Origin: Candidatus Thorarchaeota archaeon
GTDB taxonomy: Archaea; Asgardarchaeota; Thorarchaeia; Thorarchaeales; Thorarchaeaceae
Assembly: GCA_016839275.1 (NCBI GenBank)
Contig: JAEOUM010000117.1
Location: 63,861 to 127,860, forward strand
Direction: 5' to 3'
DNA: 64,000 nucleotides
In this document: positions 4,222 to 56,581 of the stretch, in pieces
Numbering within the stretch: the first letter of the stretch is position 1
Layout of the letters: every line of letters begins with the position of its first letter
Program-made: the position numbers and the translations under genes
The notes under the pieces: generated by a model
Databases searched by the model: none
What the model was told of the DNA's origin: nothing
What the model saw: only the letters and a program-made list of their open reading frames with translations

Positions 4222-4276
4222 TGTGCGGGATAACCTCCCCGCAATCCTGATAAGATAAAACTCAGGATTCAACTTA

Positions 4277-4942
4277 TTGAGATACACTGGGGGTCTCAAG
4301 TCCTTGAATGATGACGAGATGAATGATGTACGACAGTTGATTGATCTAATGCAGTCACAATTAGTAGAACTATTTGATCAACTACGTGAGTTGAGAGAGC
4401 GTCTCAACCTTATCTCAGAGCCATCATCAGATGGCGAATCATCCATTCTTCCCCTCTTTGCTGAAGTCAAAAAGACTTCTAAGAAATCTGCTAGTAGTAC
4501 CGAATTGGACATTGATGAGAGCTCAGAAGAAGCAGTAGCCAATGATGAAGAGCTGGAAAACCCTCCGAACAATCACTCTACTTCTCCCACTGAAGATGTT
4601 GACGTATCTTTAGTGGACTCTATTGACTCAGCTTCTGGTACTTTCGACTCCACGGCAATAAGTGCAAAGGTGAGTCGGGTTCTCGATCCAATAGCACGAG
4701 AGTTACGGACTGGCGAAGCAACTGCGGATATTATTATGGAATATCTTCAATCCGCAAAAGAATATTTAATTGACGAGGATGAACGGAAGAAGAAAGTTGC
4801 GCGGGACATGGATATAGTCTTGAATTTTCTAAAAGCACGGGGAAAGAGGGGAATACGGTCGGAGGAACGTGATAACATATTGAAAAGAATACGCCGCTGG
4901 AAAGCCCACCTAGTATCTTATTCAGACTCTCCAGCAGAATAG
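4277..4942 (+). CDS. Hypothetical acidic, helical protein downstream of herA
   Basis: 221-aa ORF, acidic and helical, no recognisable motif. Confidence 0.35.
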   Translation: MRYTGGLKSLNDDEMNDVRQLIDLMQSQLVELFDQLRELRERLNLISEPSSDGESSILPLFAEVKKTSKKSASSTELDIDESSEEAVANDEELENPPNNHSTSPTEDVDVSLVDSIDSASGTFDSTAISAKVSRVLDPIARELRTGEATADIIMEYLQSAKEYLIDEDERKKKVARDMDIVLNFLKARGKRGIRSEERDNILKRIRRWKAHLVSYSDSPAE

Positions 4943-4959
4943 GCCCCGACTGGATAAAC

Positions 4960-5250
4960 CTACTCCAAGTCAAGTATAACGCGTTTTACCTTTGTCTTTG
5001 AGATTTTCTTCAAGCCATGTTGACCTGGCTCGTATCTACAATCCAGGAGACCTGCCTCATAAAGGATCTTGATTTGGGCACTGGCATTAGCCTCGGTTCC
5101 GCCAAGATGTCGTGCCACTCTTGTTACGTCCTTCTCACCTTGAAGAAGGAGTCTTAGTACTTTCAATCTAGTTGCAGAAGATAGCGCGCGTCCAATACGT
5201 AGTATTGCATCATCGTTGTCAATTTGTAGTGTTTCGGACAGTTCTAGCAC
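4960..5250 (-). CDS. ArsR-family winged-helix transcriptional regulator
   Basis: LRIGRALSSATRLKVLRLLLQGEKDVTRVARHLG... HTH pattern typical of ArsR/SmtB. Confidence 0.55.
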   Translation of the reverse strand: MLELSETLQIDNDDAILRIGRALSSATRLKVLRLLLQGEKDVTRVARHLGGTEANASAQIKILYEAGLLDCRYEPGQHGLKKISKTKVKRVILDLE

Positions 5251-5392
5251 CTCATGCGAGCGTTGGCGTGTTGCTCAAGTAAGTCTTTATTATACTTGTT
5301 GTTTGGGAAGTTCTGAGGATACATTCACATAACCCAATGGTCAAAAGGGTTCATAGCCAGTCTAAATTATTGTGATGTGAGTGCTGAGCTGA

Positions 5393-7420
5393 ATGGGCGA
5401 TGAAAGTGTATTCATTATAGGCTTTGATATACTACCTTCACACAGTCCTGGGGCTAGATCTGCTCCAAAATTCGCATGTGTAATAATGAGAGATGGAGTA
5501 ATTCTGAATGAATACCCAGAAATTTCTCGTGGTGCTCTATTAAAGATAGTCAAAACAATAGCACCAAAGTGGTTCTGTACCGATAATATCTTCGAGATAG
5601 TCCCTGATAGTAAGTCGTTATTTCAACTGGCAAGTCGTATTCCCAACGAAACAAGAATTGTTCAGGTGACAGGGGTTCCACCACATCAAATTCAGCTCAA
5701 GACTTTAGCTCGTCGTCATGGCATAAACATACGAGGAAAGCCAAGCGCTCTAGAGTCAGCAGCAATCGCCGCTCAACTGGCATCGAAAGGCATTGGTCAT
5801 TCATTAGAGTGTTTCAGTGAACAGACCGAGATCAAAGTGACTCGAGCTCGGAAACCTGGTAGTGGAGGACAGAGCGCCAATAGATACAGACGTAGAATTC
5901 ATTCCGAGATTCAACAGATGACACGATTTATTGAATCTCAGCTCAAAGCTGCTGAAATCGAGTATGATATAGATGTCCGTAATTCTGATTTTGGATACGC
6001 AAGTGCACGTCTTATCACAAATGCACCTCTCCCAGTAATTCGAAACAAAATAGATGCCAAGAGGGGCGGTGACTTCAATATTCTGATTTCGCCTGTTCGT
6101 AAGCGTGTCGAGTTCATGCCTCTTGAACCTATGACAAATCTTTCCGAAATTAAGCCAAAATACTACATACTTGGAGTTGATCCTGGAATAACTGCTGCAT
6201 ACTGTCTTTTGTCTTTAGACGGTAAGGTAAAGGTTCTGAAAAGTAGGAAAGGGCTAACTAGAGCGGATATGATACGCGAGGTCTATGAGACCGGTATTCC
6301 AGTTATGCTGGCTTCTGATGTTCCACAAGCACCTCACTTCGTTGAGAAGATAGCAAGTACAGTCAATGCAATAGTGTATACTCCTGCAAAAGCTATTCCC
6401 GTAGCTGAAAAGCAAGAGCTTGCACGGTCATATGCCAATCACATCAGAGTTCGTAATGCTCACGAGCGAGATGCGTTAACCGCAGCTATCTATGCATTTA
6501 GATCAGTCCTGCCAAAATTGCAGCAGATTGATCGTATGATAAAGGAAGAGCAACTCACGGTTGATCGAAACCATCTGAAGGCTCTCGTGATTAAAGGCAC
6601 CCCTATTAATGAGGCTCTGGCGAGTTTGGAACGTTCAGGTGCAGAGATTGTGGAAACCATCCCAGTAGAACAACCGGTTCAACCATCTGAGGAGAAACTG
6701 ACACAAGAGCGGTTCGATGCTTTAAAAAATCGCTTTGAGCAGATAGAGGATGAAAATCAGGTCCTAGCAGAAAGAGTAGAGGATCTCATACGATTTGTAG
6801 AATATCTCAAGTTCAGAGAAAGTGAGCTTGAGCATAGTCTTGAGATAGTTACTCAGAACAACTACTGGAGAATAAAACGTGACAGAGAATTGGAGAAATC
6901 AAAATCTTCGCTTAAGAAAGCTGAAGCAGACATTATCAAACTTCGAAAACAAGAAGCAACAATGAAGAGTAGACTAGAGCTTCTCAAAGGTGTCAAGCGT
7001 CTTGAGATGCGCGGTGATATGTTAGCTGTGAAAGTGATACCTCATTTCACCCGAGAGAGTGTAGAGGAGTACAATCATAAGGTTGGTTTGAAAGCTGGTG
7101 ATATTATCCTATTTGAGGACGCCTCAGGTGGAGGCCTACAGACTGCAGGACTATTAATTGAAAAACAGATTCGTGCTGTTGTTGTTGACACTCCGCTCTC
7201 ACATCTTCCAAGAGAAGAGCTTGTACGAGCTCTCATACCGATTATTGATGCAAAAGAAGTGGATTTACGACGAATTGATGAATTTGCCTTCATTAGTCGG
7301 AAAAAGTTTGAGAGTGTCCTTCAATCATTCATCAAGGATGTGCGCGAACAAGCTAGACAGAAGGGTGAGGAACAACTAGTACAACTGATTGAACGATACA
7401 AACGAGAGATAGAACGTTAG
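5393..7420 (+). CDS. Conserved archaeal protein with two RNase H-fold (RuvC/YqgF-like) segments and a long coiled coil (COG2433/DUF460-like)
   Basis: IIGFDIL at the N-terminus and YILGVDPGITAAYCLL (RuvC/YqgF-like) mid-protein; strongly coiled-coil C-terminal third. Confidence 0.5.
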   Translation: MGDESVFIIGFDILPSHSPGARSAPKFACVIMRDGVILNEYPEISRGALLKIVKTIAPKWFCTDNIFEIVPDSKSLFQLASRIPNETRIVQVTGVPPHQIQLKTLARRHGINIRGKPSALESAAIAAQLASKGIGHSLECFSEQTEIKVTRARKPGSGGQSANRYRRRIHSEIQQMTRFIESQLKAAEIEYDIDVRNSDFGYASARLITNAPLPVIRNKIDAKRGGDFNILISPVRKRVEFMPLEPMTNLSEIKPKYYILGVDPGITAAYCLLSLDGKVKVLKSRKGLTRADMIREVYETGIPVMLASDVPQAPHFVEKIASTVNAIVYTPAKAIPVAEKQELARSYANHIRVRNAHERDALTAAIYAFRSVLPKLQQIDRMIKEEQLTVDRNHLKALVIKGTPINEALASLERSGAEIVETIPVEQPVQPSEEKLTQERFDALKNRFEQIEDENQVLAERVEDLIRFVEYLKFRESELEHSLEIVTQNNYWRIKRDRELEKSKSSLKKAEADIIKLRKQEATMKSRLELLKGVKRLEMRGDMLAVKVIPHFTRESVEEYNHKVGLKAGDIILFEDASGGGLQTAGLLIEKQIRAVVVDTPLSHLPREELVRALIPIIDAKEVDLRRIDEFAFISRKKFESVLQSFIKDVREQARQKGEEQLVQLIERYKREIER

Positions 7421-15072: not shown

Positions 15073-15160
15073 GCGGAGGTTGCCCAGCCTGGTTAAAGGC
15101 GCAGGGTTTAGGTCCCTGTCTCGTAGGAGTTCGCGAGTTCAAATCTCGCCCTCCGCACCA
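15073..15160 (+). tRNA. tRNA-Leu(TAG), class II, with encoded CCA
   Basis: Manual fold gives acceptor GCGGAGG/CCTCCGC, 3-bp D stem, anticodon stem CAGGG/CCCTG with loop TTTAGGT (anticodon TAG), long variable arm, T arm GCGAG-TTCAAAT-CTCGC, discriminator A. Confidence 0.8.
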
Positions 15161-21338: not shown

Positions 21339-22949
21339 TTGACATCCGTAAAACGTCGAAATGTATTGGCAATTCTTATCAAATCTGGGTTTCAGATTAC
21401 ACCTGATGCTTTAGACTATATACTGAATCTCGACGCTCCTATGGAAATTGTTGAGTCTGTCATTCTGTCTAATATGTCCATTGACAGTTCTACTGTTCTC
21501 ACAAGAGAGTACATTGAATTATTAATCGAAGGAAAGACTGTTGAATCTGCCTCTGTGGAATTCATCTCAGGAACAGAACAAGAGCCTATTCCTCCTCCTA
21601 CAATCGCTGAATCTCCAACCAGTGAATCCGAGCTGAATTATAGAATCGAAAAAAATCCGGACGAGAATTCAGTAGGATCTGAGGGTATTATTGAGGATTT
21701 TCTTGAACTATTTCGAGACCGATATGCACGAATCAAAAAAATCTACATGAGTCGGATAGACACACAAAACGCCGTCACTCCATATATTGCTAAACAACGG
21801 AAAAGTTCGACGAAACCAGGACCTTTACAGAATAATGAAAGTGGCCGCAGAGGAAGACCACCTAGTCAAGTTGTACTTGGAATAATAAGGAACAAGAGTA
21901 TCTCAAGCCAACGAAATATCATTATTGATTTAGAGGGTCATGAAGACTCGATAATCTGTGTGATCCCTTCAGTGCAGCGAGGTCCCAAAAATCAGGATCT
22001 ATCCGAAAAAGCGAACGCACTACTACTCGATGAGATTGTGTGCATATCAGGCTATGTTGACAGTAGCAGACGTATGATTGCTGATGATGTTCTCTTTCCT
22101 GATATTCCGACAGTGCGTCAACTAGGCCGTGCTAAGAAAGAGATCTATGCTGCATTCATTTCAGACCTACACTGTGGCAGTCATGAATTCCTAGAAGATG
22201 AATTTGATCGATTCATAGATTGGATAGGCGGGCATGATGTTGACACCTCTGACAAGAATATGATAGAGAAGACAAAGTACCTCTTCATTGCAGGAGACTT
22301 AGTAGACGGTATCAGCGTATATCCTAGTCAGCGGGAACACCTAAAGATACCAAGTCTCTACGATCAGTATGCTACGGTTGCAGAAAAATTGAAGAAAATT
22401 CCGAAGAAGATTAAGATCTTCTGTATACCGGGCAATCATGATGCGTGTCGCCAAGCTCTTCCCAAACCGCCAATCCAGAGAGTATTTGCAGAACCGCTAT
22501 ACAGTCTTGAGAATGTCACAGTACTTGGTGATCCATGCCAGATACTTGTGGAGGATGTCAGAATATTGATGACCCATGGGGACAGTATGGATGACCTTGT
22601 AACCACACTTCCTCGAGCGTCTTATACTGAACCTGCAATATCTATGATAGAGCTACTGAAAAAGCGTCATCTTGCTCCAATATACGGTGGCAAAACAGAA
22701 CTAGCTCCTCTACATCGCGATTGGATGGTCATTGATACGCCACCTGATGTAGTCCACTTCGGTCATGCGCACCATAATGCGGTTGACAATTACCGGGGAG
22801 TACAAATAATCAACTCGGGTACTTTTCAATCGCAGACTGATTTCATGCGTAAACAAGGTGTTATACCCACTCCTGGAATTGTGACTCTTCTCAATCTCCA
22901 GACCGGAATTCCCGATGTAAAATTCTTCTATGATATGTCAGCGCAATAG
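21339..22949 (+). CDS. polB: DNA polymerase D small subunit DP1 (Mre11-like phosphoesterase)
   Basis: Calcineurin-like motifs FISDLHCGS, FIAGDLVDG, IPGNHDA, HGDS, GHAH; N-terminal LAILIKSGFQITPDAL typical of DP1. Confidence 0.85.
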   Translation: MTSVKRRNVLAILIKSGFQITPDALDYILNLDAPMEIVESVILSNMSIDSSTVLTREYIELLIEGKTVESASVEFISGTEQEPIPPPTIAESPTSESELNYRIEKNPDENSVGSEGIIEDFLELFRDRYARIKKIYMSRIDTQNAVTPYIAKQRKSSTKPGPLQNNESGRRGRPPSQVVLGIIRNKSISSQRNIIIDLEGHEDSIICVIPSVQRGPKNQDLSEKANALLLDEIVCISGYVDSSRRMIADDVLFPDIPTVRQLGRAKKEIYAAFISDLHCGSHEFLEDEFDRFIDWIGGHDVDTSDKNMIEKTKYLFIAGDLVDGISVYPSQREHLKIPSLYDQYATVAEKLKKIPKKIKIFCIPGNHDACRQALPKPPIQRVFAEPLYSLENVTVLGDPCQILVEDVRILMTHGDSMDDLVTTLPRASYTEPAISMIELLKKRHLAPIYGGKTELAPLHRDWMVIDTPPDVVHFGHAHHNAVDNYRGVQIINSGTFQSQTDFMRKQGVIPTPGIVTLLNLQTGIPDVKFFYDMSAQ

Positions 22950-22956
22950 AATCAGA

Positions 22957-24204
22957 CTATCCTAGGATGTCCTTTGCTGCCTTGCTGAGTCTGATGTCAT
23001 CATCAAGAATGGCACCAATCTGTTTCTTACTCACAGCTAGCTTGATTTTCTTTGTACGTCCATAACGCCCCTTCGAAATCACTGTTGTATTGATAAGACC
23101 AAGCATATCCAACTCTGAGATCAAGTCAGAAACGCGTCTCTGTGTCAATATATCTAATGAAAGAGTCTTCGCAATGTCTGAATAGACATTGAAACACTCT
23201 CCTGTGACAATATCATTTTGTCCCTTATCAGCAAGTGCATACACTGCAAACAATACTGCCTTTGATTGCATTGGCAGTGTTTTTACGGCTTCAGTTATTG
23301 TGTCCCTCTCGATTACCTTTTGAGCATCTCTTACATGCTCTTGGCTAACCTTCGCATCTCCTCTCCGCTCTGCTAGTTCTCCTGCGGTTCTTAATAGATC
23401 AAGTGCACGTCGTGCGTCCCCATGTTCTTGTGCAGCTAGTGCACCAACAAGATTAATGACGCCCTCATCTGCAACTGCATCTTTATTGAATGCAATCTCC
23501 ACACGCTGTTGCAGAATGCCTCTCAGCTCAACAGCATTGTATGGGGCAAAGATGACCTCCTCCTCTCCAAGTGTGGATAGCACCCTGGGGTCGAGCATCT
23601 CTTTGAAGGTCAGATCATTACTTATTCCTATTATTGATATTCGGCTTCTATCAAGTTCGCTATTCATTCTAGTTAATCCGTATAGGATATCATTGCCCTG
23701 ACTAACATCTCGTTTCACAAGATAGTCCACTTCATCTAGCACTACAACCATAATGCTCTGGTCTGAATCAAGTTGCCTCTTGAAGATTGATCTTATCTCA
23801 TCAGTTGGCAATCCTGTAAATGGAACATCTGACCCGTCAGGCATTGTTGCATTAATTGCATCACAGAGTTGTCGGAGCACTCTGTAGTTTGTTCCAACAA
23901 TTCTACAATTTATTAGTGCAGTCAAAGGAGGGGTGAGTCTACTCTCCTTAGCCTTTTTTACTAGTAGATCTAGCACATATCGCGCTACAACAGTTTTACC
24001 AGTGCCAGTCTTACCATAACACAGAATGTTGGATGGGGGAGCACCCCGTAATGCAGGTCCCAAGATAGACCCAATCTTGTTCATCTGATCATCCCTATAT
24101 GGAAGGCTCTCTGGCACATACGTGGCTCTTAGAGCAGTTCTATCCTTGAAAATATCTTGACCTTGCAAAAACTTGTCAAATAGTTTATCGAGAGGCTTTT
24201 CCAT
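22957..24204 (-). CDS. cdc6: Orc1/Cdc6 replication initiator; the ORF track extends the N-terminus to 24270
   Basis: Walker A GKTGTGKTVVARYV; Walker B VVLDEVDYL; C-terminal winged helix; N-terminus MEKPLDKLFDKFL... aligns to archaeal Cdc6 starts. Confidence 0.9.
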   Translation of the reverse strand: MEKPLDKLFDKFLQGQDIFKDRTALRATYVPESLPYRDDQMNKIGSILGPALRGAPPSNILCYGKTGTGKTVVARYVLDLLVKKAKESRLTPPLTALINCRIVGTNYRVLRQLCDAINATMPDGSDVPFTGLPTDEIRSIFKRQLDSDQSIMVVVLDEVDYLVKRDVSQGNDILYGLTRMNSELDRSRISIIGISNDLTFKEMLDPRVLSTLGEEEVIFAPYNAVELRGILQQRVEIAFNKDAVADEGVINLVGALAAQEHGDARRALDLLRTAGELAERRGDAKVSQEHVRDAQKVIERDTITEAVKTLPMQSKAVLFAVYALADKGQNDIVTGECFNVYSDIAKTLSLDILTQRRVSDLISELDMLGLINTTVISKGRYGRTKKIKLAVSKKQIGAILDDDIRLSKAAKDILG

Positions 24205-24421
24205 CCCACAATACTCCTGTCTATAACTCGAGGTATGAAACCTACACTTATGGCTCTTAAACACTTCCATAAGAAGTTGAGGTAAGTTCCATTGGACTTC
24301 AATTGGAACCTATGGAGCATATGGAAAAAAGAGTAGGTATTACCAGTTAAGTACCAATAGTACTATTCATCTAGTTATCACTGTCATCTGTGTCTACAGA
24401 CAACTCTTCCGGTGACATAAT
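24205..24421. promoter_or_regulatory. Putative replication origin (oriC) upstream of orc1/cdc6
   Basis: Inverted repeat GTTCCATTGGAC/TTCAATTGGAAC at 24287..24310 resembles ORB/mini-ORB cores (TCCANTGGAA), followed by an AT-rich stretch; next to cdc6 and near the polD small subunit, as in Pyrococcus. Confidence 0.4.
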
Positions 24422-25060
24422 TTGCGTCTAAGGGACCTTGAGATTGCACTTGAATCCATATCACGTACTGGAGAGTATGATGTTTCATTGGAACAATATC
24501 CCACTCCTGCCAAAATCGCCTCTGCAATCCTTTTTGCTGCTCAGATGGAACACGGAGACATAACGAGTAAGACTGTTTGCGATTTGGGATGTGGCGATGG
24601 AATATTTGCACTTGGAGCGGCTCTTCTTGATGCGCATCATGTGATTGGAATTGATGTACAAAGCAAAGCCTTAAAGGCGTCACAAATGAATTCACGATTG
24701 CTCGGGATAGAAGACACAGTAGACTGGGTATTAGGAGACGTCTCCTCTTTTCAGCTACGAAGTCTTGTCGACACTGTGGTTAGCAACCCACCGTTTGGTG
24801 TCAAGAAAAGAGGTGCTGACCTGAGATTCCTACAAAAAGCAATCTCAATTGCCGATGTGACCTATAGCATACACCTTGCAGGTGACAAGAACAGAGTCTT
24901 CCTGAAAAATGAAGTCGAGAAGCTTGGTGCAAGAGTGACACAAATCGAAACTTTCCAATTTCCAATAGGTAAATTGTTCGATTACCATAAAAAAAGTATC
25001 CATATGATTGATGTAGACCTCTATCGAATATGTTCCAAAGAGTGTGAACCGAATGGCTGA
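24422..25060 (+). CDS. Class I SAM-dependent methyltransferase with NPPFG motif (METTL5/HemK-like, putative RNA m6A MTase)
   Basis: DLGCGDGIFALGAAL motif I; VSNPPFG motif IV. Confidence 0.7.
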   Translation: MRLRDLEIALESISRTGEYDVSLEQYPTPAKIASAILFAAQMEHGDITSKTVCDLGCGDGIFALGAALLDAHHVIGIDVQSKALKASQMNSRLLGIEDTVDWVLGDVSSFQLRSLVDTVVSNPPFGVKKRGADLRFLQKAISIADVTYSIHLAGDKNRVFLKNEVEKLGARVTQIETFQFPIGKLFDYHKKSIHMIDVDLYRICSKECEPNG

Positions 25061-27063: not shown

Positions 27064-27435
27064 TTGACCGAAGAGAAAAAATTCATTCGAAAAAAGCCAT
27101 CTCGGCTTACAACTATTCGTGAGATTTCATCAGAATCTCGTGGGCCTGTCAGAATACTTGGAATTGTAGTGGATTCCAGCCCAGGTTCTGCTCTTGTACA
27201 GGATCTTTACGATGAAGATTTTAAGAAGGCGGGAAGCATTTGGATTACTATAGAGGGAACTCTTGAACCTAAGAAAAAGTACCTCATCATCGGTGATGTG
27301 ACAGAGAAGACCGACGGTGATACTAAGATTCCTTGGCTGAATGCAACCCTTGCACATGATGTTGATTCGCTCGACATTGCACTGTACAAAGAAGTTCTGG
27401 AACTAGAGGAGAAGGTCACTAAAACAATGAGTTGA
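27064..27435 (+). CDS. Hypothetical OB-fold-like protein upstream of PCNA
   Basis: 123 aa, beta-rich (RILGIVVD...ALVQD...IEGTLEP); placed between tfs and pcna. Confidence 0.3.
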   Translation: MTEEKKFIRKKPSRLTTIREISSESRGPVRILGIVVDSSPGSALVQDLYDEDFKKAGSIWITIEGTLEPKKKYLIIGDVTEKTDGDTKIPWLNATLAHDVDSLDIALYKEVLELEEKVTKTMS

Positions 27436-27580: not shown

Positions 27581-28339
27581 ATGTTTCACGCAACTCTAGA
27601 CAGCACAAAAACCTGGAAACAGATAGTAGACGCCTTGGCAACTCTTCTTACTGAGGCTCATCTTCAAGTATCTGAATCTGGAATGACATTACGCCAACTT
27701 GACTCGTCCAAGGCAGCAATGGTTGATTTAAATCTCCCATCTGCTGTTTTTCAGGAATATGCATGTAAAGGACAACATGATATCTGCCTGGGGATTGATG
27801 AGCTTGCCAGAGTGAGTAAGCGAATGGGTGGAGATGAGCGTCTGGAGTTCAATCTTGATGAAGAAAATAAACGATTGGAAATCCGGATGATTGGCCAAGC
27901 TGAAAGACAGTTCAAACTTCAACTCCTCACACCTCCAGATAGCCCAACAAGCAAACCAAGTATGGCTTTTGAGGTCAAGGCTGAAATGTACGCAGACGCT
28001 TTCAAGCAAGCGATAAAAGATATTGGTGTGGTATCAAGCCATGTGAAGATTACCGCTGAGAAGAATACACTCACCTTCTCAGGGGAAGGCGATACTGGCG
28101 AAGCACAAGTCACGCTCTCTACCGAAGGTGAAGATCCTGTTTTGTTCCAGTTGAAAGTTGGCAGTGGTTCGTCTGCTGCTATGTACGCGCTTAACTACCT
28201 TGCTGAGATATCAAAAGCTATACCTAGTGATAGTATAATTCTTCAGCTCACTGGAAATAAACCAATGATGTTGGAATTTGCCATCGCAGAGGCAGGTAAT
28301 ATTAGCTTCATCTTGGCACCACGTGTTGAACGAAGGTAG
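27581..28339 (+). CDS. pcn: DNA polymerase sliding clamp PCNA
   Basis: MFHATLDSTKTWKQIVDALATLLTEAHLQVSESGMTLRQLDSSK matches the PCNA N-terminus; 252 aa. Confidence 0.85.
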   Translation: MFHATLDSTKTWKQIVDALATLLTEAHLQVSESGMTLRQLDSSKAAMVDLNLPSAVFQEYACKGQHDICLGIDELARVSKRMGGDERLEFNLDEENKRLEIRMIGQAERQFKLQLLTPPDSPTSKPSMAFEVKAEMYADAFKQAIKDIGVVSSHVKITAEKNTLTFSGEGDTGEAQVTLSTEGEDPVLFQLKVGSGSSAAMYALNYLAEISKAIPSDSIILQLTGNKPMMLEFAIAEAGNISFILAPRVERR

Positions 28340-28458
28340 ATTGGTCTCCCAGATTGATAATATGGAATAGTGCTCTACGAATGCCATACACCCACCCAGC
28401 ACCTCATTGGTTCTTATAGTCGAAACATAAAAGTTCACAAGAGGAGTGGTCTTCTCCA

Positions 28459-29847
28459 ATGTCAAAACGGAATCAGGGAAGGACAACAACCATAATGAAG
28501 CTCCGGCTTTTATTCCACGAATATTACTCGGAGAACCCTGAATCCTTAGATGTACCAGATAGTATCCATGCAAGAGAGTTTGCTTTGCAGACTTGGGAAC
28601 ATAACTGGCACTGCATAGAAAGGAAGGACAAAGACAGTACAGGCAAAGATGTTCGAAGTGGTTGTGGAAAATCAGGTAAGTCCTTTCAACCACTGAAAGA
28701 GTGTCCAAACTGCGGATCTGGGGAAATTAAATCCACAAGCTGGATTCGTCATATTGGTTACCAATCACGTGACGCCCTTTTAAGCGGTCTAGCCAACTCC
28801 GCACCGCAGAGTGTGTATCATTCTGCAGCATTCTATAAGGTTCCTATTGCAACACACATGCATGAAAAAGAGTGGCAGGGTGCTGAGCTGGTCTTTGATA
28901 TTGATGCCGACCATCTAAACTTGAAGTGTTCGAACGATCATGATGCATGGCGATGCAATAACTCCGACTGTCATAAAACAGGAACCGGAATCGCCCCTGA
29001 AACTTGCCCAGTATGTGGCAATATTAGTTTCAGCACAAGGAAATGGATTTGTGAAAAATGCCTTAATGAAGCAAGAAAATACACAATCAAGCTCTATGAT
29101 GATTTCTTGGTTGGTGATTTCGGGTTTGACCCAGATAAAATTCAGTTGAATTACAGTGGACACAGAGGTTACCATGTGAGGGTTCGGGATCCTCAAGTAT
29201 TCATGTTAGACTCTAATGCACGAGTAGAGATTGTCCATTACGTGATGGGCCTTGGTTTCAAAGGCGATAAGTCAATAGTCACTGAGAGTGGCGCCAAATG
29301 GATGCCGAGTCGTGACTTTCCGGGTTGGACAGGACGCATTGCTGATGCATTAGTTGAGTTTATTCGATCTATTGACTCGTACCCAGGAACAGAGAAATGG
29401 GTTTCTTCGCTAAAAGAAAGAAAGGCGGAAGCATTGGACGGTCTATTAAGAACCAGACCCATTCTTAGTAAGAATGTGAAGGGCGTGGGAGTCAAGTCTT
29501 GGCAGGAAATTGCTGAGAAAGCTGTCGAACTCTATGGAAGCGAGATTGATAGACCTGTTACGCACGACATTCATAGAGTAATTCGACTAATTGGTAGCTT
29601 AAATGGTAAGACTGGTTTTGCTGTATCTTTACTCACTCGCGACCAACTTGATGATTTTGATCCATTCAATGAATCGATTGCTTTTAATCAAGGCACTATG
29701 AAAGTCTTACTTCATAAGGGCCAGAGTATTCCTTCCTTTAAAATTGGCAGTGAAACGTACGGTCCATTCACTATGGAAGAAACTGTTGATTTGCCAATGG
29801 GTGCAGCAGTCTTTCTCCTCTGCAAGGGGGTAGCTTCAATTGAGTGA
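28459..29847 (+). CDS. priS: DNA primase small (catalytic) subunit PriS
   Basis: Catalytic ELVFDIDADHL motif; Zn ribbons CPNCGSGE and CPVCGN. Confidence 0.75.
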   Translation: MSKRNQGRTTTIMKLRLLFHEYYSENPESLDVPDSIHAREFALQTWEHNWHCIERKDKDSTGKDVRSGCGKSGKSFQPLKECPNCGSGEIKSTSWIRHIGYQSRDALLSGLANSAPQSVYHSAAFYKVPIATHMHEKEWQGAELVFDIDADHLNLKCSNDHDAWRCNNSDCHKTGTGIAPETCPVCGNISFSTRKWICEKCLNEARKYTIKLYDDFLVGDFGFDPDKIQLNYSGHRGYHVRVRDPQVFMLDSNARVEIVHYVMGLGFKGDKSIVTESGAKWMPSRDFPGWTGRIADALVEFIRSIDSYPGTEKWVSSLKERKAEALDGLLRTRPILSKNVKGVGVKSWQEIAEKAVELYGSEIDRPVTHDIHRVIRLIGSLNGKTGFAVSLLTRDQLDDFDPFNESIAFNQGTMKVLLHKGQSIPSFKIGSETYGPFTMEETVDLPMGAAVFLLCKGVASIE

Positions 29848-30484
29848 TATGAACTATAATCACATTAAGAACGCATGGGAGGATGAAACGGAGAATGAAA
29901 CACTTCAGGATATGGCAGATTTACGGTTGAGTAAGATGATCTCCTATCTCTCTCAGGTTCGTTTGTCCCTGGCATCAACAAACGCGGATGAATCACTCCA
30001 AGCAGATATACTAACACAAGAAGCACTCAACCTAGAGTTCATGCTCGAAGATTTGCTTGCTCTCCGCCGAGATAAAATCATGAAATCTGCTCTTATTGGT
30101 CGTCATCCAACAGGTAATATGACGCTCGCTGAAGAAGAGTTCTACAATCGTATTCAGCGTGCGTTTGATGCTCACTCAGAGTTCATGAAGGAGTCATTGG
30201 CAGGATCCGCCCCATCTCGTACCAAGACTAAAGTCAAGAAAGGCAAAATGACAAAGGACCAGGAAGAAAAACCTGCTGAAGAATCTGATGAAATGGACCA
30301 TATAGTTGTAAAGTTCCTCCGCCCCATTGACGAAGCATTCATGGGACTTGACGAACAGACCTATGGTCCTTTCAAGAAAGAGGATATTGCTACAATACCT
30401 ACTGCAAATGCTAGAAGATGGCTACGTGATGGTACTGTGGTCAGGGTGGTGCTTGAGGATGGTGCCCTAAAAGATGAAAAATGA
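29840..30484 (+). CDS. GINS subunit Gins51-like
   Basis: Helical A-domain plus small B-domain; overlaps the priS stop by 8 nt (priS-gins15 adjacency is known in Sulfolobales). Confidence 0.45.
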   Translation: MSDMNYNHIKNAWEDETENETLQDMADLRLSKMISYLSQVRLSLASTNADESLQADILTQEALNLEFMLEDLLALRRDKIMKSALIGRHPTGNMTLAEEEFYNRIQRAFDAHSEFMKESLAGSAPSRTKTKVKKGKMTKDQEEKPAEESDEMDHIVVKFLRPIDEAFMGLDEQTYGPFKKEDIATIPTANARRWLRDGTVVRVVLEDGALKDEK

Positions 30485-49144: not shown

Positions 49145-49337
49145 TGTATGTACCCATCCTTTGTGGTAATAGATTCGCTTTGTTTGTGGTTCAGCCTCAA
49201 AGGCCACATCCCGCGCGGACGTATCCGCCAATACAAAGGAATGGTCTGGTCAGGCACTAGTGCCATGACCAGATACACCCGAAATGATTTGCTTAAAGAT
49301 GTAACGTTTTGTCTGTTCAAAGCGAAGACTGAACAAG

Positions 49338-55958: not shown

Positions 55959-56167
55959 CATATGGTCATGGCCATTTGTTAAGCATCCCTTGGAGGGGTT
56001 CTAACTTCCCCTCGTTTCCACTGGAGTCGCAGACACTCTCTCTGTATTACTAACAGTTTAGAGTCCCGCTAGGTGCCATACAATAAGCCCTAGAGGACTC
56101 TGTAATACTCGAACCTCCCTTATATACAGGGAATGGGAAGGGTTACTCGGAGAGGATTACGATTCAA

Positions 56168-56581
56168 TTGGACTATTCCACCCGGATTGACGCTATCATC
56201 GACTATGTAATCAGAAGACCTGCTATCCCTCGCCATTGGGATCCCGTGTCACGACCCCACGTAGCTGTATTGATGCCTGACCCTCTATCGGGAGCAGAAG
56301 TCCGCTATTACCTGTCTCGTTGTGGTGAGAGGAATTCTAATGGTCGCTCCATTCTCGAAGTGGCAGATATTGATACACTTCCTGAGGGAACCTTGTTAGA
56401 GGTGCGATTCAACGCGACACGATCCAATCTATATCAGCTTGAGCTGGTTGGAACCATTCCTTGTTGGCGATGGCTTGGTCGAAGTCAGGGTCTTCCCGAT
56501 TTCAACAGTGATGAATCAATCTACTGGGATCATGTACTCGATACTGGTACCTACACCCCACGAGATATGATTCTCGCCTGA
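56168..56581 (+). CDS. Hypothetical protein
   Basis: 137-aa ORF with no motif. Confidence 0.3.
   Translation: MDYSTRIDAIIDYVIRRPAIPRHWDPVSRPHVAVLMPDPLSGAEVRYYLSRCGERNSNGRSILEVADIDTLPEGTLLEVRFNATRSNLYQLELVGTIPCWRWLGRSQGLPDFNSDESIYWDHVLDTGTYTPRDMILA

Follow-up and report, generated by a model that had tools for sequence, protein, structure and literature searches.

A conserved array of origin-recognition-box-like sites upstream of orc1/cdc6 in Thorarchaeota as a candidate region for initiator binding

The window analysed here, 64,000 nucleotides (64 kb) of contig JAEOUM010000117.1 from a Candidatus Thorarchaeota archaeon, contains an orc1/cdc6 replication initiator gene (cdc6; positions 22957 to 24204, minus strand), and the DNA upstream of this gene had been proposed as a chromosomal replication origin. 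Divergent from cdc6 lies a class-I methyltransferase gene (24422-25060, plus strand, TTG start; Pfam MTS, PrmA and UPF0020), and the intergenic region between the two is the sole non-coding DNA adjoining cdc6. Its length of 217 bp and the cdc6 start at 24204 (MEKPLDKLF) are as originally predicted; the same start is found in homologues and in independent gene calls on public contigs. Within this region an 80-bp block (24265-24344) comprises three dyads that resemble the core of archaeal origin recognition boxes (ORBs; TTCC-N4-GAA / TCCA-N-TGGA), two TGGA half-units and one palindrome. On the other side of cdc6, the gene for the small subunit of DNA polymerase D (DP1; 21339-22949, plus strand; Pfam DNA_pol_E_B and Metallophos) is its neighbour as predicted, at a gap of 7 bp, but the two genes are convergent rather than co-directional, an order that also occurs in the Asgard archaeon Atabeyarchaeum. 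Downstream of the methyltransferase gene follow Csl4, RpoL, TFS, PCNA, PriS and GINS51.

The 415-aa product of cdc6 (Pfam Cdc6_C, Cdc6_lid and AAA) matches S. solfataricus Orc1-1 (2qby_A) and A. pernix ORC1 (2v1u_A) with E values of ~5e-98, compared with 7e-48 for Orc1-3 and 4e-16 for ORC2. The alignments with 2qby_A and 2v1u_A, the two homologues with structures solved on ORB DNA, show close matches to its winged-helix segments, TQRRVSDLISELDMLG and GRYGRTKKI. Judged from its sequence, the gene encodes a clear initiator of the Orc1-1/Cdc6-1 class. The intergenic region directly adjoins it, just as oriC1 adjoins orc1-1 in essentially all archaea studied (PMC4010727, PMC12141716).

The unit of the block nearest to cdc6, U0 (TTCCATAAGAAG, 24265-24276), has the TTCC-N4-GAA spacing of mini-ORBs and scores 8/11 against the ORB core on either strand. 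Its positions T24266 CCAT..GAA24275 are invariant in 25/25 sequences, as is the A24280 GG that follows it (24280-24282), the only G-string-like remnant. U1 (GTTCCATTGGAC, 24286-24297) is an ORB core dyad, TCCA-N-TGGA, with AGTTCC and T.G.A invariant and the central base free (T2, C11, G8, A4); in most Thorarchaeota genomes it reads TTCCA(G/C)TGGA. At a spacing of 11 bp from U1 comes the weaker dyad U2 (TTCAATTGGAAC, 24298-24309; TTC-N3-TGGA), which is TTCGACTGGA(A/G)C in most relatives and in which T.C and TGGA are invariant and positions 24301 and 24303 free. Two half-units, U3 (CTATGGAG) and U4 (CATATGGAA), occupy 24310-24326 with column identities of 0.82-0.88, and the block closes with the palindrome AGGTATTACC (GGTAWTACC; 24335-24344; GT.TTA invariant, identity 0.94). 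None of these elements is assigned to a strand. TGGA recurs at 24293, 24304, 24313 and 24322, that is at spacings of 11, 9 and 9 bp, and the TTCCA of U0 and that of U1 are 22 bp apart.

U1 and U2 are the two 12-mers from which the origin had been proposed. The pair exists, starting one nucleotide before the predicted 24287..24310, but the description as one inverted ORB pair falls short: the array has three dyad units, along with two half-units and a palindrome. The two 12-mers form an imperfect inverted repeat (14-nt arms, 79% complementary) and also an imperfect direct repeat with 11-bp spacing; both readings are possible because each unit is itself dyad-symmetric. The expected likeness to archaeal ORBs was borne out. 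Pyrococcus ORBs and mini-ORBs, which are bound by Cdc6, are invariant at TTCC and at GAA, which stand 4 nt apart, as in TTCCAGTGGAACT (PMC1904270), and U0, U1 and U2 share this TTCC/TCC-N4-GAA or TCCA-N-TGGA geometry. These three match 8-9 of 11 specified core positions, a threshold at which the background is ~4 matches per kb on both strands. The region thus holds at least two ORB elements with the shared TTCC...GAA / TCCA-N-TGGA core (U0, U1 and U2), and with three boxes and two half-boxes within 24265-24326, near cdc6, it has the make-up of a mini-ORB cluster. Cdc6 binds weakly to a lone mini-ORB but cooperatively to a cluster such as that of Methanothermobacter (PMC1904270).

Within the window alone, the statistics of the repeat are marginal: TTCMATTGGA occurs in 3 copies compared with 0.55 expected, and 3/100 shuffles reach 3. 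When the genome collection was scanned with the Cdc6 protein, 46 loci came back, of which 28 belong to Thorarchaeota (Cdc6 identity 80-98%). The protein itself is 100% identical to a database entry, and most of its relatives at 78-99% identity carry the source name Candidatus Thorarchaeota. All 28 Thorarchaeota loci keep the divergent cdc6/methyltransferase pair and an intergenic region of 161-237 bp. When 25 of these 28 regions were aligned (alignment A1), mean column identity was 0.88 in the block, 0.86-0.89 in the first codons of both genes and 0.48-0.66 in the other intergenic DNA. Of the 28 loci, 25 carry the exact motif TTCCANTGGA, placed 41-101 bp before the cdc6 start, and the other three differ by one base; by our own calculation, base composition predicts ~0.002 copies per intergenic region. 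Its rarity elsewhere, which the original prediction had named as a check, was confirmed, with one further copy in ~340 kb of Thorarchaeota cdc6 loci and two copies in total in the 64-kb window. The variation is patterned as in protein-DNA sites, the dyad arms being invariant and the central base free. Because the block is conserved across Thorarchaeota, near-invariant over 28 species-level genomes while the flanking intergenic DNA has diverged, the repeat is more than chance; a coincidental repeat without function is ruled out by this conservation for all practical purposes.

We also rejected the block as a structured RNA or an element of an untranslated region, an idea that deserves very little credence. 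Its hairpin potential is weak (DNA fold of -9 kcal/mol, z = -1.8; 9/200 shuffles fold as well), and the same weakness led us to discard a cruciform or hairpin formed in the DNA. The RNAalifold covariation term is -0.43 kcal/mol with almost all predicted pairs invariant, and what variation there is falls at dyad centres, not in compensatory pairs. Moreover, the block has no Rfam match and lies upstream of both putative promoters.

Binding by Orc1 is the most economical reading, because ORB-core geometry is combined with an adjoining Orc1-1-class protein whose winged helix matches, and we consider it probable that Orc1 binds 24265-24344 at these putative sites. Occupation by one or more other transcription factors, with the ORB-core likeness convergent or owed to a related winged-helix regulator, seems improbable. 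Such a factor would account for the palindrome AGGTATTACC, which is not ORB-like and whose core GTAWTAC recurs in two invariant copies (56044 and 56102) in another conserved promoter region, and it would fit U3 and U4 being merely half-sites. However, the motif is essentially confined to the cdc6 upstream region in 28 genomes and is identical to the core of full ORBs beside orthologous cdc6 genes in sister lineages, and the window has no comparable array in front of any other gene. The window has just 6 copies of GTAWTAC, of which 3 are intergenic and all three of these conserved; the palindrome is possibly a regulator site.

The array lies close to putative transcription signals. For cdc6, a putative Shine-Dalgarno sequence GGAG (24214-24217, minus strand) is kept as CTCC in most relatives, and a putative TATA box is found in GTTTAAGA (24255-24262, minus strand; ATTTAT in most relatives), with columns 24258-24261 (TAAA) conserved in 19 of the 21 sequences in which the segment is present. 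Between this box and the start codon lies a variable leader that includes the GGAG. U0 begins 3 nt from the putative TATA box, at the position expected of the B recognition element (BRE) of the predicted promoter. On the other side, the methyltransferase Shine-Dalgarno sequence GGTGA (24411-24415) appears as GGTG in the alignment of relatives. The heptamer ATTCATC (24365-24371, plus strand; column identity 0.95) stays at a constant 43-50 nt before the methyltransferase start codon, whereas a variable 21-43 nt separate it from the 80-bp block, and it probably belongs to the methyltransferase promoter. A sub-clade (L010, L015, L022, L025 and L026) has lost ~50 bp of the cdc6 leader/TATA region. 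There the array stands 20-40 nt from the cdc6 start codon, with U0 at ~20 nt, and the U0-U1 spacer becomes ..AAGGGTAG (CCCTTTAC on the cdc6 strand), which may be a relocated TATA box for a leaderless mRNA. At so short a distance, promoter overlap seems unavoidable in this sub-clade too. As U0 abuts the putative TATA box and BRE, occupancy by Orc1 should repress cdc6 transcription, and from this position we judge autorepression via the array to be an evenly balanced proposition.

We tentatively favour, at slightly less than even confidence, a compact oriC1 that also autoregulates cdc6. The tandem mini-ORB array would then be the binding-site cluster of the neighbouring Orc1-1/Cdc6-1. ATP-bound Orc1 monomers would recognise the dyads U0, U1 and U2 via the winged-helix domain, and the weaker TGGA half-units U3 and U4 would let the complex extend cooperatively; the TGGA spacing of 9-11 bp places the sites roughly on one helix face. 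This would set up an autoregulatory loop, like that of the DnaA boxes at the dnaA promoter. The same Orc1 complex would be the likeliest place for MCM recruitment, in an oriC1 that would be compact, G-string-less and poor in a duplex-unwinding element (DUE), and unwinding would occur in the neighbouring segment of low stability (24319-24378). Two points speak for an origin at this locus, the near-universal linkage of oriC1 to orc1-1 and the lack of any other ORB cluster within -24/+50 kb of cdc6. A small size does not in itself speak against one, since the functional core of Sulfolobus oriC1 is just 130 bp and its DUE is largely mutation-tolerant (PMC12141716). Origin function, and not only that of a cdc6 switch, is plausible, and the firing of an origin at the cdc6 locus we rate as not quite an even prospect.

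Beside the orthologous cdc6 genes of sister lineages we found canonical origins, which offer a basis for comparison. The complete chromosome of Atabeyarchaeum deiterrae (L029, CP147780.1) has a 900-bp non-coding region (4403-5309) ~1 kb upstream of cdc6 in which a full ORB (4673-4704) is followed by an 80-bp stretch of 24% GC (4756-4835), an inverted ORB (4865-4886) and a third ORB (5032-5051). ParA and ParB genes lie on one side of this origin and a 160-aa gene lies between it and cdc6. ParA and ParB genes also stand beside the origin of LC30 (L028; about 4660-5010). LC30 and three Odinarchaeota (L030-L032) have their full ORBs at 1.0-1.8 kb from cdc6, in an upstream region whose lowest 80-bp GC is 9-21%. 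Two ORBs are inverted around a DUE both in Odin L030 (origin about 4227-4650) and in Atabeyarchaeum, and where at least two ORBs were found (Atabeyarchaeum, LC30 and two Odin genomes) they are ~170-410 bp apart. In four Bathyarchaeia genomes (among L033-L040) the distance from the full ORBs to the downstream cdc6 is 0.3-0.75 kb, and GC minima of 13-24% lie nearby. Across Atabeyarchaeum, LC30, Odinarchaeota and Bathyarchaeia the Cdc6 orthologues are ~44-55% identical, and the core TTCCA(G/C)TGGA is common to their full ORBs and the Thorarchaeota U1. The Atabeyarchaeum, LC30 and Odin origins appear to be undescribed in the literature searched. Separately, in the Caldarchaeales/Nitrososphaerota loci L037, L039 and L043, full ORBs lie ~330 bp upstream of cdc6 and have an extra GTGGAG/GTGGAA half-site 9 bp downstream, e.g. 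TTCCAGTGGAGCCCGTGGAGCC, a core-plus-repeated-TGGA pattern as in U2-U4.

A further feature of the sister-lineage loci is a family of winged helix-turn-helix (wHTH)-like proteins (133-165 aa, no Pfam domain; alignment A2) encoded beside oriC/cdc6 in Atabeyarchaeum (the 160-aa gene, 5310-5792), LC30 (5302-5799), Odin L030 (5073-5546, minus strand) and the Bathyarchaeia L033, L035, L036 and L040. A profile search returned 2720 database homologues, some of them annotated ArsR-like. Among the 120 homologues listed, the named sources are only Bathyarchaeia, Odin and Atabeyarchaeum, with no Thorarchaeota, and tblastn found no such gene in the window or in the Thorarchaeota cdc6 loci. The protein is a candidate origin-associated factor.

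Measured against these origins, several observations weigh against an origin at the Thorarchaeota cdc6 locus. We built a position weight matrix (PWM) for the full ORB from 14 Asgard and Bathyarchaeia ORBs (TCCAGTGGAAA-N4-GGGGT) adjoining orthologous cdc6 genes (training sites 26-37 bits), and it has no match of at least 9 bits in 24205-24421. No inverted ORBs flank a DUE in the intergenic region, where the units sit side by side at 11-bp spacing, and the boxes, which score equally on both strands, have no assignable polarity. The array is placed between two putative core promoters within the short intergenic region in the 28 Thorarchaeota. A distal inverted partner, GTTTCATTGGAAC at 24482 inside the methyltransferase gene, was dismissed as chance, given that its synonymous sites vary freely in relatives.

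The AT-rich stretch that had been predicted to follow the boxes is present but weak. The least stable duplex segment and sole candidate unwinding region (24319-24378, no strand, 28% GC) ranks in the lowest 0.75% of 60-bp segments of the window for GC, and other intergenic regions reach 20% GC; by nearest-neighbour free energy, its weakest 50 bp (24328-24377) belong to the top 0.34% of the window. AT-richness is not conserved, as the lowest 40-bp intergenic GC of relatives ranges over 22-40% without being consistently low and L001 and L002 are without AT enrichment. Two comparisons add to the case against an origin: the corresponding tail in relatives has 27-43% GC vs 41-47% for the loci, whereas sister-lineage DUEs have about half the GC of their locus or less (21-24% vs 46%, and 9-13% vs 34-37%).

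Nor does GC skew lend support. The cumulative minimum, suggested as a check by the original prediction, does fall at ~24-25 kb, but there it coincides with a switch of coding strand, which explains it without replication. Left and right of 24.3 kb, coding-strand skew is 0.055 and 0.077 for plus-strand genes and 0.154 and 0.153 for minus-strand genes, changes in GC3 (third codon positions) are inconsistent, and the 64-kb window contains no replication-related skew switch. We therefore discarded skew as origin evidence. Bidirectional replication has been inferred from GC skew in Atabeyarchaeia and Freyarchaeia, and a bidirectional skew pattern is apparently absent from Loki, Heimdall and Odin genomes (PMC11291895). 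It also tells against an origin that the literature searched holds GC-skew inferences only and no mapped or dissected Asgard origin. Overall, the proposal of an origin stands in one part, namely that conserved, near-unique boxes lie 5' of an Orc1-1-class gene. It lacks support in others, with no G-string, no DUE between inverted ORBs, an array that overlaps the putative cdc6 core promoter and canonical sister-lineage origins that are placed elsewhere relative to that promoter.

Atabeyarchaeum has, besides its origin, a promoter module before cdc6 (5812-5845) that reads TTTGGAAC-GTAG-GTTCCAGTCA-GGTATTACC or, in another parsing, TTTGGAAC..GGTTCCAGTCAGGTATTACC. Here AGGTATTACC is found again (5836-5845, ~150 bp upstream of cdc6), adjoining GGTTCCAGTCA; we estimate the chance of AGGTATTACC in a 300-bp region at <0.001. 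The module is apart from the canonical origin, with the nearest ORB ~0.8 kb off, beyond a gene. This arrangement counts further against an origin, as it implies that the Thorarchaeota block may descend from a promoter-proximal Orc1 module, not from the origin proper. Another possibility is that the origin was condensed onto the promoter-proximal module in Thorarchaeota.

The chief rival to a compact origin draws on the same observations. It holds that the block is an operator only, by which Orc1, or Orc1 with a partner, would regulate the divergent cdc6/methyltransferase promoters, with the origin elsewhere; the origin may have been split from cdc6 by a rearrangement that introduced the methyltransferase-Csl4 cluster, or replication may be independent of a cdc6-linked origin. 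We place this on the unlikely side. It agrees with U0 abutting the putative TATA box, with the closeness of the array to the start codon in the short-leader clade and with the absence of canonical origin features from the full-ORB PWM and DUE analyses. It also agrees with Atabeyarchaeum having a canonical oriC (4673-5051) plus a separate promoter-proximal module that shares AGGTATTACC, although the homology of this module is based on one genome. The lack of the oriC-cdc6 companion wHTH gene near Thorarchaeota cdc6 indicates a rearrangement at exactly that junction. Precedents exist: Haloarcula ORB clusters are negative regulators by titration (PMC4010727), and Saccharolobus Orc1-2 acts as a transcription factor (PMC12490963). 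On the other hand, an oriC1 split from orc1-1 would be unusual among archaea, and no alternative origin came to light. Scans with the full-ORB PWM gave no ORB cluster in ~445 kb of Thorarchaeota loci and no other cluster within -24/+50 kb of cdc6, a span made up of the 64-kb window and ~10 kb past its right end.

Over the whole window the PWM gave just one match of 18 bits, at 56 kb. There a perfect 12-mer, TCCAGTGGAAAC, is followed by GAGGGG (56006-56030). We considered this element as a second or true origin and rejected it: its score of 18.3 is reached by 1/20 shuffles, the TCCA half reads TGCA in relatives, and it is a single box with no AT-rich DNA. The surrounding intergenic region (55959-56167, ~210 bp), upstream of a 137-aa open reading frame (ORF; 56168-56581), is conserved nearly base for base across 11 related metagenome loci, including cases in which the ORF has just 61% identity; in the assemblies L062 and L063 the ORF is not called. 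It contains a ATGGCCAT palindrome, the single ORB-like element with its G-string (reverse complement CTCCAGTGGAAACGAGGGG; TGCAGTGGAAG..GGGAAG in relatives), the two invariant GTAWTAC palindromes and a TTATATA box, and it has no Rfam match. The region is probably a heavily regulated promoter.

A compact origin combined with autoregulation, which remains our preference, can be set beside known systems. Sulfolobus/Saccharolobus oriC1 (PMC12141716) also lies immediately upstream of the orc1-1 orthologue, has a TCCA..GGAA dyad core bound by Orc1-1 monomers and has a small functional core. It differs in having ORB1-3, with ORB3-DUE-ORB2 as functional core, and ~36-bp ORBs with a G-rich extension, two of which are inverted around a highly AT-rich DUE carrying the ucm motif. 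The Thorarchaeota block, in contrast, has adjacent 11-bp-spaced cores without G-string, enclosed DUE or detectable polarity. With the oriC of Pyrococcus/Thermococcales (PMC1904270) it shares the TTCC-N4-GAA core of 13-bp mini-ORBs, the clustering of several weak sites and the neighbours cdc6 and dp1. Pyrococcus, however, has two 34-bp inverted ORBs and two AT-rich regions over ~0.8 kb, and its dp1 gene contains a second ORB cluster, whereas in Thorarchaeota DP1 carries no cluster and is convergent, not co-directional.

Similar in form are the boxes of Methanothermobacter thermautotrophicus (cited in PMC1904270), which are short (13 bp), have no long extension and occur in multiple copies close together that bind Cdc6-1 cooperatively. 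The 3 full and 2 half units of the Thorarchaeota array take up ~60 bp, and it is the 9-11-bp phasing of TGGA that suggests cooperativity. In Methanothermobacter the mini-ORB repeats reportedly extend across several hundred bp and are accompanied by AT-rich DNA. The sister-lineage oriC of Atabeyarchaeum, LC30, Odinarchaeota and Bathyarchaeia has the same core and an orthologous initiator, and in Atabeyarchaeum a convergent DP1, but its boxes are full ORBs (TCCAGTGGAAA-N4-GGGGT) 0.3-1.8 kb from cdc6, with a lowest 80-bp GC of 9-24% and a wHTH gene beside them. Bacterial DnaA boxes in the dnaA promoter offer a functional parallel: initiator boxes overlap the initiator's own promoter and can couple its level to its own expression (PMC8203912). 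That system belongs to another protein family and domain of life, and repression in Thorarchaeota is suggested by position.

A few other features of the window are recorded here. Between TFS and PCNA, a 123-aa ORF (27064-27435) gave a match to the Ten1 (CST complex) OB-fold family (PF15490, E = 8e-5, 22.7 bits) that stays below the cut-off of 27 bits; the ORF may encode a small OB-fold protein of the RPA/Ten1 type in the PCNA-PriS-GINS51 replication cluster (27581-30484). An Rfam match (48 bits) to the eL15-Euryarchaeota ribosomal-protein leader lies at 49183-49228 (minus strand) of this Asgard genome. The window has a single tRNA-Leu (anticodon TAG; 15073-15160, plus strand).

The element is of a known kind, ORB-type initiator boxes beside orc1, with an architecture that is a clear variant, and the contrast with the canonical origins of sister Asgard lineages is new within the literature searched. 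A wider evolutionary proposal, which we regard as doubtful, is that the canonical ORB-DUE-ORB origin of the Asgard cdc6 locus and its companion wHTH gene are gone from that locus in Thorarchaeota, where the 80-bp phased mini-ORB array, with neither G-strings nor an AT-rich DUE, is left. Thorarchaeota would then have uncoupled or rebuilt the ancestral Asgard origin, ending either with a minimal promoter-embedded origin or with initiator gene and origin unlinked. In the first case initiation would be coupled to transcription, reminiscent of eukaryotic promoter-associated origins; the second would be exceptional among archaea. Published work on Asgard origins ends at GC-skew curves, and the outcome here is a precise 80-bp candidate for initiator binding in Thorarchaeota, to be compared with the ORB-DUE-ORB origins of three further Asgard lineages. 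Should the block be a working origin, it would show the extent to which an archaeal origin can shrink, with no G-string, no AT-rich DUE and a place inside promoters. Should it be an operator only, it would be a clear archaeal case of initiator autoregulation via origin-type boxes, and would imply that origin and initiator gene have been separated in Thorarchaeota. Either outcome bears on the loosening of origin specification en route to eukaryotes.

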